From contig CAZPXM010000006.1 of NCBI GenBank assembly GCA_964591015.1, positions 1-63,304 of the forward strand: DNA of 63,304 nt. Direction: 5' to 3'. The DNA comes from an uncultured Gemmatimonadaceae bacterium. GTDB lineage: Bacteria > Latescibacterota > UBA2968 > UBA8231. Positions 37,022-40,333 of this stretch are shown one piece after another. The stretch's first letter is position 1. Each line of letters starts with the position of its first letter. The position numbers were made by a program, and so were the translations under genes. The notes under the pieces are model-generated. The model was not told the DNA's origin and searched no databases. It saw only the letters and a list, made by a program, of their open reading frames with translations.

Positions 37022-37822
37022 CTACGCGTCCTGCCCGGCGGGCACGATCACGCTGATCCGCTCGATGCCCACCGCGCGCCCCGACGTCGGCTCGACCTGG
37101 ACCAGGGCACCGCGGAATGCCGCGTCGCCCTCGGCGGGCTGCAGGCGCACCGGCGTCTGGGTGAGAAAGCGCTGGATGGCCAGTTCGGGACGCACGCCGA
37201 TCACCGAGTCGATCGCCCCGGTCATGCCCGCGTCGGTCAGGTAGGCCGTGCCCCCCGGCAGCACGCGCTCGTCGGCCGTCTGCACGTGGGTGTGCGTGCC
37301 GATGACGGCCGACACGCACCCGTCCAGGTACCATGCCAGGGCGACCTTCTCGGCGGTCGCCTCGGCATGGAAGTCGATGAAGACGACGGGCGTGCGCGCC
37401 CGCAGCCGCTCCACCTCGGCGCGCGCGGCATGGAAGGGGCAGTCGATGGGCGGGAGCGAGGTGCGGCCCTGCAAGTTGATGACGCCGACCCACGGTCCCG
37501 AGCGCGCCTGGATCAACGTCGAGCCGCTGCCGGGCGCCTCCACCGGGTAGTTGAGCGGCCGGAGCACGCGGTCCGTGCGCTGCAGATAGGGGATGAACTC
37601 CTTGCGGTCCCAGACGTGGTTGCCGCTGGTGATGACGTCCACGCCGTAACTGCGCAGCTTGTCCACGGTGTTCTCGGTCAGACCGAAGCCGCCTGCCGCA
37701 TTCTCGCCATTGGCGATCACCAGATCGACGGCGCGCTCGCGGATGAACCGGGGGATTTGCTCGGCGGCAGCGCGGCGCCCTGCCTGCCCGAACACGTCGG
37801 CGACGAAGAGGATGGTGAGCAC
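37022..37822 (-). CDS. ymdB: YmdB-family (TIGR00282-type) metallophosphoesterase
   Basis: ANGENAAGG, TSGNH, DFHAEATAEK, GTHTHVQTADE; directly downstream of rny. Confidence 0.94.
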   Translation of the reverse strand: MLTILFVADVFGQAGRRAAAEQIPRFIRERAVDLVIANGENAAGGFGLTENTVDKLRSYGVDVITSGNHVWDRKEFIPYLQRTDRVLRPLNYPVEAPGSGSTLIQARSGPWVGVINLQGRTSLPPIDCPFHAARAEVERLRARTPVVFIDFHAEATAEKVALAWYLDGCVSAVIGTHTHVQTADERVLPGGTAYLTDAGMTGAIDSVIGVRPELAIQRFLTQTPVRLQPAEGDAAFRGALVQVEPTSGRAVGIERISVIVPAGQDA

Positions 37823-37834
37823 GCGCGGCTCCTG

Positions 37835-39397
37835 TCAGCGGGCGTAGTGCACGGCGCGCACCTCGCGGATCACGCACACCCGGATCTGGCCGGGGCGTTC
37901 GAGCTGCTTCTCCAGTTTGTCCGCGATCTCGTCCGCCAGCTGCTCGGCGTACACGTCGTCGACGGCGTCGCTGTCCACCATGACGCGGACCTCGCGGCCG
38001 TTCTGCAGGGCGTACGCCTGGCGGACGCCGAAGTGCGCCCGCGCGATGTCCTCGATCGCGCGGAGCCGCCGGACGTATTCGTCGACCTTGTCCTTGCGCG
38101 CCCCGGGCCGGTTCAGCGAGATCTCGTTGGCGGCCTCCACCAGGACGGCGACCAGCGTGCGGGAGGGCAGCCGCTGGTTGTGCGTCTCGATCACCTCGAT
38201 CACCTCGGGGCTCTCGCCGCACTTGCGCGCCAGCGCGGCGCTGGCCTGCGCCGCGTCCGCACCGATCTCGAAGTCGAAGGCCTTGGCAGTGTCGTGCAGG
38301 AGCCCGGCGCGTCTGGCCAGGGCGGCGTCGACGTCCAGCTCCGCCGCCATCATGCCCGCCAAGGTCGCCACTTCCTTGCTGTGCTCCAGCAGGTTCTGGC
38401 CGTAGCTGGTGCGGAAGCGGAGCTGCCCGATGGCCTCCAGGAGCGGTTCGGCCAGATCATGGATCCCGAGGTCGAAGGCCGCCTTGGAGCCGGACTCGCG
38501 CGTCAATTCCTGCACGTCCTGACGCGCCTTCTCGTACACCTCTTCGATGCGCCCGGGATGGATCCGGCCGTCCTGGATCAGCCGCTCGAGCGTCGTGCGG
38601 GCGATCTCCCGCCGCATGGGGTCGAACCCGGACAGCATGACCATGCCCGGCGTGTCGTCGACCACGACCTCGACGCCCGTGATCAACTCGAACGAGCGGA
38701 TGTTCCGGCCGTCGCGGCCGATGATGCGTCCCTTCATCTCGTCGGTGGGAAGCCGGATCACCGAGACGGTGCTCTCGACCGCCATCGCGCCGGCGAAGCG
38801 CTGGATGGCGCTGACGACGATCTCCTTGGCATGCTGGTTCGCGTTGGCGATCGCGTCGTCCTTGATCTCGCGCACGCGCCGTGCTGCATGCTGGCGGGCG
38901 CTGTGCTCGAGTTCGCGGATGAGGGCCAGCCGGGCCTCGGCCTGGGTCATGCCGGCCAGGCGCTCGAGCTGCCGGGTCTGCTCGGCCACCAGCTCGTTCG
39001 CCCGGGCCTGCCGGGCCGCCACCTCGGCTTCGCGCTGCTCGAGGTCGTGCTCCGCCTCGATGAGGCCGCGCTCCTTGCTCTCCAGGACGTCGACCTTGCG
39101 GTCGAGCTGCTGCTCGCGCTCCTGGAGCTGCGTCTCCAGCTCCCGCAGGGCGCGCCGCGAGTTCTCCAGCTCGCGCTCCGCTGGTTCGCGTTCGCGGCGC
39201 CACTCGTCGCGGGCTTCGAGCACCGCGGTCTTCTTCAGCGCTGCGACCGCTTCCTGAGCCTCGGCGATCAGGCGCTCGGCCATGGCCTTGGCGCTGTCGA
39301 GCCGGCGCCGCCGCACCCTCTCCCAGAGGAGATACCCGGACACCAGCCCCGAGGCGAAGCAGACCAGCGCCAGGGCGATGCCTTGTGCAAGGGTCAT
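37835..39397 (-). CDS. rny: Ribonuclease Y (HD domain partly degenerate)
   Basis: N-terminal TM plus coiled coil, KH domain MKGRIIGRDGRNIR, DGRIHPGRIEE, RTSYGQN, LLHD, RPGAR, GREVRVMV. Confidence 0.95.
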   Translation of the reverse strand: MTLAQGIALALVCFASGLVSGYLLWERVRRRRLDSAKAMAERLIAEAQEAVAALKKTAVLEARDEWRREREPAERELENSRRALRELETQLQEREQQLDRKVDVLESKERGLIEAEHDLEQREAEVAARQARANELVAEQTRQLERLAGMTQAEARLALIRELEHSARQHAARRVREIKDDAIANANQHAKEIVVSAIQRFAGAMAVESTVSVIRLPTDEMKGRIIGRDGRNIRSFELITGVEVVVDDTPGMVMLSGFDPMRREIARTTLERLIQDGRIHPGRIEEVYEKARQDVQELTRESGSKAAFDLGIHDLAEPLLEAIGQLRFRTSYGQNLLEHSKEVATLAGMMAAELDVDAALARRAGLLHDTAKAFDFEIGADAAQASAALARKCGESPEVIEVIETHNQRLPSRTLVAVLVEAANEISLNRPGARKDKVDEYVRRLRAIEDIARAHFGVRQAYALQNGREVRVMVDSDAVDDVYAEQLADEIADKLEKQLERPGQIRVCVIREVRAVHYAR

Positions 39398-39654: not shown

Positions 39655-39990
39655 TCAGCCGCGTTCCGAGCTCAGCGCTTCGTGCCGCTGCTCCTCGAAG
39701 AGGCGGCCGAGCGAGGCGGTCAGGCGCGAGGTGCGTTGCGCGATGTCCGCCTCGGCAGCCTGGTACTCTGCCTGCAGGCCGAGCAGCTCCTCGGCCAGCT
39801 GGAGTCCGGCAAGGATGGCGGTGTGCACGGGCGGAGCGTAACGGTCAGCCGACCGCACGGCCTGCATCGCGGCGTCGACGAACTGGGCGACCTCCTGAAC
39901 GTGCTCCGGCGTCTGCCCCGGCTGGAGCGCGATGGCGTATTTCTTGCCGTTGATGCTGACTACTACGGTCGAATCGCTGGCTGCTGGCAT
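39655..39990 (-). CDS. zapA: Cell division protein ZapA
   Basis: VSINGKKY..EVAQFVDAAM..AILAGLQLAEEL; pheT-zapB-zapA-rny synteny; GAGGAG RBS. Confidence 0.88.
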   Translation of the reverse strand: MPAASDSTVVVSINGKKYAIALQPGQTPEHVQEVAQFVDAAMQAVRSADRYAPPVHTAILAGLQLAEELLGLQAEYQAAEADIAQRTSRLTASLGRLFEEQRHEALSSERG

Positions 39991-40075
39991 CGCCCCTGGC
40001 TCCTCAGGGCCCGTGGCTCTTTGCACGCTGCGACCGCACCGGTTGCTGCCCTGCCGCGCCTGTGACCGCGAACGA

Positions 40076-40333
40076 TCAGACCTCCACGGCGTCCAGCTTG
40101 GCCAGCAAGCTCTCGATACGGCTGCGAATGATCTCGCGGCTCTTGGTGATCTCCTGGAACTGCTCCTCCACCTGTCTGAGGCGGGCATTCTCGGCACGAA
40201 GCTGCGCGATCTCGCCTTCCGTGCCATCCAGGCGAGTCTTCAACTCGCGGTTCTCTTGGCGCAGAGCGGTCAGAATCTCGACCAGACGACCCACTTCCTG
40301 TTCCAGACGCTCGAAGTGGCTGTCCACTGCCAT
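40076..40333 (-). CDS. Coiled-coil ZapB-like protein
   Basis: 85-aa heptad-repeat protein (FERLEQEV..LRQENRELK..IRSRIESLLAKL) directly upstream of zapA. Confidence 0.78.
   Translation of the reverse strand: MAVDSHFERLEQEVGRLVEILTALRQENRELKTRLDGTEGEIAQLRAENARLRQVEEQFQEITKSREIIRSRIESLLAKLDAVEV

Follow-up and report, generated by a model that had tools for sequence, protein, structure and literature searches.

A divergent RNase Y paralog with an altered HD metal site, retained beside a canonical second copy in Candidatus Latescibacterota

Introduction

RNase Y (Rny/CvfA) initiates mRNA decay in many bacteria, and in the literature examined it is treated as a single-copy enzyme. In this study, we analyzed a stretch of 63,304 nucleotides (contig CAZPXM010000006.1 of assembly GCA_964591015.1; "the window" below means this whole stretch) from an uncultured bacterium of the Latescibacterota that is found in freshwater sediments. 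The stretch carries a gene, rny-A, for an RNase Y that lacks part of the usual metal-ligand set of its HD domain. The RNase Y at the rny-A locus of the window is called A, and B denotes a second, canonical RNase Y located elsewhere in the genome. Public records name the bacteria of the A clade Candidatus Latescibacterota, and they form an uncultivated, family-level clade. A preliminary description of the locus, made from its letters alone, had read A as an RNase Y that has lost several HD-domain metal ligands, with either a changed use of metal or a role as an inactive scaffold.

The closest described system is the canonical RNase Y of Bacillus subtilis, Staphylococcus aureus, and Helicobacter pylori. 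A is like it in architecture, TIGR03319 score, and HD dyad, and also has the rny-ymdB neighborhood, the operon arrangement of B. subtilis. However, A differs by the loss of the third His, the loss of the second His of the HH pair, an Asn at the position of the last Asp, and coexistence with the canonical B. The endoribonuclease activity of RNase Y depends on Mg, Mn, or Zn, and the B. subtilis enzyme self-associates via its N-terminal and, by modeling, its C-terminal regions (PMC9775385). The HD dyad is required for RNase Y function (PMC11821409; PMC3997798). Among HD proteins, H...HD...H...H...D marks dinuclear and H...HD...D mononuclear sites, the two extra histidines being what distinguishes them (PMC8177086).

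Two further comparisons are useful. RNase J1 and J2 of the Bacillota are paralogous RNA-decay nucleases that are kept together, as A and B are, and they are the functional model proposed for the A/B pair, since J2 is a poor nuclease that enters a mixed J1/J2 complex with altered specificity (PMC3997798); their beta-CASP fold, however, is unrelated to A and B, for which a complex is weakly supported, by prediction. The nearest chemical precedent is Bd1817 of Bdellovibrio (PDB 3TM8), a degenerate HD-GYP protein with Asn for the last Asp, as in A; it is inactive, yet keeps the extra histidines, which A has lost, and binds two irons (PMC8177086). Bd1817 is found among the fold matches of the A model, at rank 32-33 with an expectation value (E) of 0.012. 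The HD domain of the glycyl-tRNA synthetase (GlyRS) beta subunit, the HDOD domain, and the RelA pseudo-hydrolase all retain the HD fold for binding or regulation after catalysis was lost, as is proposed for A. The dyad is lost in HDOD and the RelA pseudo-hydrolase, and in the alignment it is replaced in GlyRS beta, but A keeps it; because H...HD is invariant or nearly so, A is not degenerate in the manner of these dead HD-like domains. Searches of article texts outside the subscription journals turned up no account of paralogous or degenerate RNase Y proteins. A can be classed as a divergent RNase Y, probably non-canonical, that belongs to a paralog system not described before.

Metal-ligand residues of A

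The ligand equivalences in A were set by alignments with canonical RNase Y, and the ligands are numbered H1, H2-D2, H3, H4-H5 (the HH pair), and D6 (the last Asp). Counts out of 105 refer to the A clade as defined below.

37835..39397, minus strand: rny-A, the gene for a 520-residue paralog of RNase Y whose HD metal site is degenerate (P0001; open reading frame, Pfam, TIGR03319)
38126..38389, minus strand: HD domain, residues 337-424 (PF01966)
38381..38383, minus strand: H339, the first metal ligand H1, kept (codon CAC; His in 105/105)
38291..38296, minus strand: H368-D369, the HD dyad, kept (codons CAC GAC; H2 His in 105/105; D2 Asp in 97, Glu in 7, Asn in 1)
38252..38257, minus strand: D381-A382, with A382 at the place of the third, second-metal His and D381 a new clade-specific Asp (382 His in 0/105; 381 Asp in 97/105)
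38177..38182, minus strand: H406-N407 in place of HH, the second His, a second-metal ligand, being lost (codons CAC AAC; 407 His in 4/105)
38123..38128, minus strand: N424-E425, Asn (AAC, 38128-38126) in place of the last Asp, with E425 a new clade-specific acidic residue (424 Asn in 62, Asp in 42, Glu in 1; 425 Glu in 83/105)

The DNA bears out what the preliminary description had reported residue by residue. The first His and the HD dyad are present at H339 and H368-D369; the canonical G-[ST]-H reads A380-D381-A382 (GCG GAC GCG, 38260-38252), so that the third His is missing from GADAAQAS, with codon GCG for A382; the HH pair reads H406-N407 within ETHN, its second His lost and its first kept; and the Asp of the conserved AAD is the Asn at 424. 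Thus, A has the HD dyad of an RNase Y, whereas the extended set H...HD...H...(H)H...D is incomplete, with A382, N407, and N424 replacing H, H, and D. Of the mononuclear set H...HD...D, H339, H368, and D369 are present and the terminal residue is Asn (Asp in 42/105 relatives). The histidine losses are exactly the two that separate dinuclear from mononuclear HD sites (PMC8177086), and both are missing in A and in 101/105 clade members. A shift of the ligands within the alignment, which would have undone the initial reading, is not what we see: H406 is the single His among residues 370-423, and therefore the ligands of A are not merely displaced.

The 120 best homologs of A comprise 105 distinct cluster representatives that are 53-76% identical to it and have the altered site, together with 15 at about 52% identity that are mostly canonical, having His at both H3 and H5 in 14 of 15 cases. 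Within the 105, as the preliminary description had proposed to check among close relatives, not one has His at H3, where Pro is the commonest state noted (83), and H4 is His in 80. Position 407 takes 15 residue types, with at least 44 changes on a FastTree phylogeny of the clade, and the state of D6 at position 424 changes at least 10 times on the same tree. Where A departs from canonical invariants, the departures concentrate in the H3 loop (379-386) and at positions 407 and 424; those in the C-terminal region include R435 and the relaxed R434 of the RPGAR motif (Arg in 60/105), and K372 is relaxed as well. Newly fixed in the clade are D381, Q384, E404 (102/105), T405, R413 (103/105), and E425, plus a patch in the linker, and still conserved are GQN, S427, R430-P431-G432-A433, and E395. 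As a side observation, C393 (38219-38221) is Cys in 69/105 or Ser in 20/105 of the clade and Tyr in 15/15 canonical relatives, and may be another change near the pocket.

Copy number and the pattern of ligand loss

In the genome from which the window comes, two proteins exceed the TIGR03319 cut-off, at 604 and 552 bits. B (P0122) is a protein of 548 residues on contig C149 that scores 552.4 bits and shares 37% identity with A; its ligand set is complete, with all seven residues in the motifs LLQHS, LLHDIGK, EGSH, EHH, and AAD. At locus L002 (1..4461), its gene is flanked by a KamA-like radical-SAM gene on one side and an RtcB-like RNA ligase gene on the other. At its C-terminus, B also carries a basic extension of about 25 residues, which A does not have. 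A gene of the RNase E/G family is present in the genome as well (469.9 bits, cut-off 325.95), so the check that the preliminary description had suggested, for a second rny or RNase E, turned up a second rny and an RNase E/G. RNase J gave no match in this assembly (248 contigs, 90.8% complete), whose incompleteness prevents inferring absence. With a second canonical rny and an RNase E/G at hand, A is a member of an old paralog pair, and the cell is not left without RNase Y.

To place this pair in the phylum, 168 genomes were searched with both the A and B proteins. In the window's family (f1), 74/76 genomes had at least two rny matches to both queries, the exceptions being G112 and G116 with one match each, and B found only a weak best match in G148. 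At least two matches were likewise found in 56/56 genomes of families f2-f4, the rest of the class, and two in 2/2 genomes of family f9. The remaining nine families (34 genomes) had one match in 31 genomes and none in 3, which are 57-64% complete. In single-contig complete genomes such as G107 and G129, A and B lie far apart on one chromosome.

From these genomes, 150 genes were extracted: 79 A (from 34/76 f1, 3/3 f2, 15/22 f3, 25/31 f4, and 2/2 f9 genomes), 47 B, and 24 single-copy genes drawn from the 31 one-match genomes. B genes keep H1, H2, D2, H3, H5, and D6 in 47/47 cases, with Gln at H4 in two, and the same six ligands are kept in 24/24 single-copy genes. Among the A genes, those of f1 have lost H3 in 34/34 and H5 in 30/34 and have Asn at D6 in 28/34; H3 and H5 are lost in 3/3 f2 genes; H3 has become Tyr in 10/15 f3 genes; H3 is lost in 24/25 f4 genes (Pro, Val, Tyr, Ala, Thr, or Leu); and the 2/2 f9 genes show D6 to Asn only. 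By parsimony, the A rows require four changes at H3, three at H5, and five at D6, and the single-copy rows none, over tree lengths of 6.6 and 3.6, respectively. Losses of H3, H5, and D6 are confined to lineages that have B, with none in the 24 single-copy genes examined. In genus g31 of f4 (L087, L089, L140-L154), A also has Gln or His for the Lys of HDIGK, besides the loss of the third His.

The single-copy rny genes of f8 and f10 (L104-L107, L112, L113, L115, L120-L122) have Leu or Ile at H4, in 10 of the 24 cases. As this is the sole RNase Y of those genomes, H4, which A keeps, is dispensable. The losses in A that carry information are those of H3 and H5.

A is the positional ortholog of the phylum's single rny, since both share ymdB synteny: a ymdB-like gene lies directly downstream at 30/34 f1 A loci (the remaining four had only 1.5 kb of flank), at 15/15 other A loci, and at 23/24 single-copy loci, versus 0/47 B loci, with 0-20 bases between rny-A and ymdB at most loci. 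In f1, B is preceded by the KamA-like gene at 32/32 loci and linked to RtcB at 6/32. In trees built without the ligand columns, A (including f9) forms one clade and B another, and the largely mirrored internal orders of the two clades indicate that the pair is old. A quick LG+G4 tree put B outside a clade of A plus the single-copy genes; a tree with A and B constrained together was 68.5 log-likelihood units better (p value of the approximately unbiased test, p-AU, 0.95); and a quick mixture-model tree recovered the A clade (95), the B clade (98), and all 16 out-of-phylum representatives on one side (90), with the backbone open. These placements of B differ, and we make no claim for either transfer or duplication.

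Selection and the reality of the substitutions

Among 24 f1 genomes with both copies, overall mean pairwise identity is close, at 67.6% for A and 68.6% for B, and its distribution along the protein differs. A is the less conserved copy in the HD domain (70.8% vs 81.6%) and the C-terminal region (68.6% vs 86.3%), and the more conserved one in the KH-HD linker (83.0% vs 61.1%). Median pairwise ratios of nonsynonymous to synonymous substitution rates (dN/dS) follow the same course for A and B, respectively, with 0.17 and 0.105 in the HD domain, 0.19 and 0.07 in the C-terminal region, and 0.10 and 0.155 in KH plus linker, values that are rough, being NG86 estimates at a dS of about 1.1, near saturation, in a GC-rich genome. 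A is not decaying and is under purifying selection, and constraint has moved between domains relative to B. The invariance or near-invariance of H339, H368, D369, RPGA, and the pocket residues, together with the HD dN/dS of about 0.17, indicates that the metal-1 site is probably still used.

Sequencing or assembly errors, or a gene on its way to becoming a pseudogene, would be another explanation of the substitutions, and it is scarcely credible; nothing in its favor was found. Logan contigs from four public metagenome runs, belonging to four studies, cover the HD region of A, although one of the runs may be the source of the assembly. One run (X1) gives a single piece over 37867-39375 with 0 differences from the window, a second (X2) gives two pieces with 0 differences, and the other two (X3 and X4) give partial cover; within the HD region, the run contigs depart from the window at one base only, G>A at 38147, which falls on the third position of the A417 codon and is synonymous. 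Moreover, the frame is intact, the changes are common to the 105 relatives, the HD dN/dS is that of a constrained gene, and the structure model of A is confident, with a mean predicted local distance difference test score (pLDDT) of 83.5. Read-level error, which the preliminary description had named as a way to overturn its reading, is contradicted by the four runs' contigs and by the relatives, and from the contigs and the lack of the third His in 105/105 relatives it follows that the altered site is real and lineage-wide. Error or pseudogene decay was rejected on the relatives' shared changes, the dN/dS, and the run contigs. A search among public runs for an RNA-derived one carrying the rny-A region listed none.

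Proposed function of A and rival readings

On balance, we think it probable that A is a specialized RNase Y paralog without the canonical two-metal site, attenuated or non-catalytic, and possibly working with B. What the data show directly is that A and B are paralogs, which genes surround them, how the ligands were lost, and that A is under selection; that the catalysis of A is lost or attenuated, and that A is a partner of B, is inferred. In the proposed scheme, A would have been inherited vertically at the ancestral rny position, with B present as a second complete copy. Where B exists, A repeatedly lost both second-metal histidines and, in the window's family, often changed D6 to Asn too, while keeping its membrane anchor, coiled coil, KH RNA-binding domain, first-metal H...HD, and tight linkage to ymdB. 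A would then no longer be a canonical two-metal endoribonuclease, and may be an attenuated or non-cleaving, membrane-tethered, RNA-binding subunit that probably binds one metal. B would do the canonical cutting, and A would have a distinct function, perhaps in a mixed complex with B. This refines the preliminary suggestion of changed metal use or an inactive scaffold, which was reasonable insofar as the substitutions hit residues of the two-metal site; inactivity is its less secure part, as H339, H368, D369, and the pocket are kept.

A complex of A(205-520) with B(208-525) is predicted with a score of 0.53, the best of 3 controls scoring 0.00; at least 67% of the contacts recur between runs, with a partner pLDDT of 73 or more. 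The mark applied to such predictions is reached by 116/157 solved complexes and 2/215 mismatched pairs, and at scores of 0.60 or less by only 18/157 solved complexes and by both passing mismatches, counts that hold only roughly since custom alignments were used.

Several points weigh against an attenuated or non-catalytic A. The related genomes are not independent, so the loss counts represent a handful of events and no statistical proof. The contact between A and B is supported weakly by prediction, and when a protein self-associates, its paralogs may score well simply because they resemble one another. The invariance of H339 and H368 (105/105), the near-invariance of D369, and the retention of the pocket motifs fit a pocket in use, possibly for catalysis, and position 424, confined to Asn or Asp in 104/105, is not free to vary. 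Only A was detected in G112 (84% complete) and G116 (94% complete), and D6 to Asn alone occurs in 10/150 diverse RNase Y representatives, counted irrespective of rny copy number. In the literature examined, the HD dyad is the only part of RNase Y whose residues were mutated; for B. subtilis, a result with an H368A/D369A mutant of RNase Y is reported. The clade-specific D381, Q384, E404, R413, and E425 could rebuild a second site with other ligands, mammalian phosphodiesterases hold their second metal via the HD Asp and waters, and nuclearity and activity are not inferable from sequence alone (PMC8177086 for the last two points).

Much of this evidence would also suit a fully competent endoribonuclease with a remodeled metal center, with A and B dividing the substrates between them, a serious rival reading that we hold to be possible but less likely. 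One metal might be held at H339/H368/D369/N424, a second metal might be bound via water and D381/E404/E425, or R413 might replace a metal. The invariant first-site residues and pocket motifs, the low HD dN/dS of A, the new conservation of D381, E404, R413, and E425 beside the lost ligands, and the retention of both copies in 74/76 f1 genomes all agree with such an enzyme, and mononuclear H...HD...D enzymes do hydrolyze phosphoesters, just as phosphodiesterases can use waters for the second metal (PMC8177086). However, the ligands are lost only where a canonical copy exists, position 407 is hypervariable, R434 and K372 are relaxed, and the HD and C-terminal domains of A evolve faster than those of B. 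The toggling between Asp and Asn at 424 suggests that the carboxylate is dispensable, and Bd1817, with the same Asn, is inactive (PMC8177086).

It is improbable, though conceivable, that A is a different enzyme altogether, neither endonuclease nor mere scaffold, which acts as a one-metal phosphatase or in a 2',3'-cyclic-phosphate step together with a co-transcribed YmdB-like phosphoesterase. The tight spacing of rny-A and ymdB and the mononuclear-type ligand set retained in A would agree with this, and mononuclear HD proteins are mostly phosphatases, the HD phosphatases having a conserved Arg three residues before the first His (PMC8177086). However, the same ymdB linkage is present at 23/24 loci of the canonical single-copy rny and is therefore ancestral and not new.

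A stronger form of the specialized-paralog reading is offered tentatively, and we would not put it on a level with the general one: A might be a natural pseudo-RNase Y, a non-cleaving, membrane-tethered, RNA-binding subunit that pairs with B and sets where or what B cuts. A bolder variant would have D381, E404, R413, and E425 form a new, His-free catalytic center. A can be put to the test as a possible regulatory or scaffold subunit of RNase Y, in the manner of RNase J2. The class as a whole, with two rny genes, amounts to a natural experiment in which the copy at the ancestral locus lost second-metal ligands only alongside a canonical copy, and it points to the HD residues that matter, namely H3, H5, and D6, and not H4.

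RNase Y diversity and a parallel in Myxococcota

To survey the wider family, B was used as the query, and 150 representatives of clusters at 50% identity were examined. All seven ligands are present in 132/150, D6 to Asn is the only change in 10/150, and other or multiple changes occur in 8/150. These eight are P0152, P0194, P0196, P0215, P0223, P0228, P0250, and P0258; P0250 is without even H1 and the HD Asp. By these counts, roughly one diverse representative in eight departs from the ligand set, a warning that proteins of different function go under the automatically assigned equivalog name "ribonuclease Y". With Asn at D6 in 13/150 representatives overall, this change is not unique to A.

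Among named species from many phyla, 78/80 are fully canonical, including Bacillus, Paenibacillus, Lysinibacillus, and Clostridium. The other 2/80 are Myxococcota with D6 to Asn (the ligands at locus L155 read HHDHHHN), and each of these two genomes holds one more rny-like gene, which is more divergent (355-397 bits) and whose ligands are canonical (2/2 examined). A search within 1.5 kb of either rny copy in these two genomes did not find ymdB. In a sample of 61 genomes of this Myxococcota class, 30 high-scoring copies were examined, and D6 of the high-scoring rny is Asn in 17/17 genomes with a second rny-like match (330-410 bits) and Asp in 13/13 single-match genomes. The Myxococcota observations concern loci L238-L241 and L242-L271 of genomes G168, G169, and G173-G232. 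Myxococcota are thus an independent lineage with the same link of an altered terminal ligand to a second copy, which may be one event there. The same division of labor may have arisen independently in this phylum, and the two cases suggest a general route that would begin with Asn replacing the terminal Asp and go on to the loss of the second-metal histidines.

Domains and neighborhood of rny-A

The remaining features of rny-A and its surroundings are as follows.

39323..39391, minus strand: N-terminal transmembrane helix, about residues 3-25 (hydrophobic stretch; helical in the model)
38789..39379, minus strand: RNase_Y_N coiled coil, residues 7-203 (PF12072, 152 bits; a single long helix in the model)
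38588..38755, minus strand: KH domain, residues 215-270, with GRDG as its GXXG (Pfam KH_1, PF00013; sequence)
37838..38086, minus strand: C-terminal region, residues 438-520 (structure model)
37022..37822, minus strand: ymdB-like metallophosphoesterase gene, 12 bases downstream of rny-A (PF13277, 341.5 bits; TIGR00282, 271 bits; synteny)
39655..39990, minus strand: zapA-like gene upstream of rny-A (ZapA PF05164, 57.3 bits, residues 88-172 of the 190-residue open reading frame 39655..40227)
40076..40333, minus strand: zapB-like coiled-coil gene of 85 residues (PF06005, 40.5 bits)

The architecture of RNase Y is complete in A, with membrane anchor, RNase_Y_N coiled coil, KH domain with GXXG, HD domain, and C-terminal region. 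Its reading frame is uninterrupted, with zero stops and zero frameshifts across 520 residues, and it matches the TIGR03319 equivalog model end to end (604.3 bits, cut-off 454.35; residues 8-520 against model positions 2-514), in agreement with the preliminary finding that the transmembrane segment, coiled coil, KH domain, and C-terminal domain look intact. The HD domain itself scores 46.3 bits with PF01966 in A versus 75.5 bits in B of the same genome. As had also been described, rny-A occupies the usual zapA-rny-ymdB position, with pheT, the zapB-like gene, and the zapA-like gene upstream and the ymdB-like gene, then xseA and recN, downstream.

In the AlphaFold model of A, the HD blocks have a pLDDT of 82-94, and the lowest-confidence exception is residues 371-380 (pLDDT 64), the loop that precedes the former H3. 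A fold search with this model returned weak HD-fold matches alone (best E 3e-4). A sequence search of the PDB for a solved RNase Y structure gave 0 matches, and a search of the PDB with a profile of the RNase Y alignment reached GlyRS beta and dGTPase-like HD domains only. The top match of that profile was the non-catalytic HD domain of GlyRS beta (7eiv, E 2.8e-4), above any HD hydrolase.

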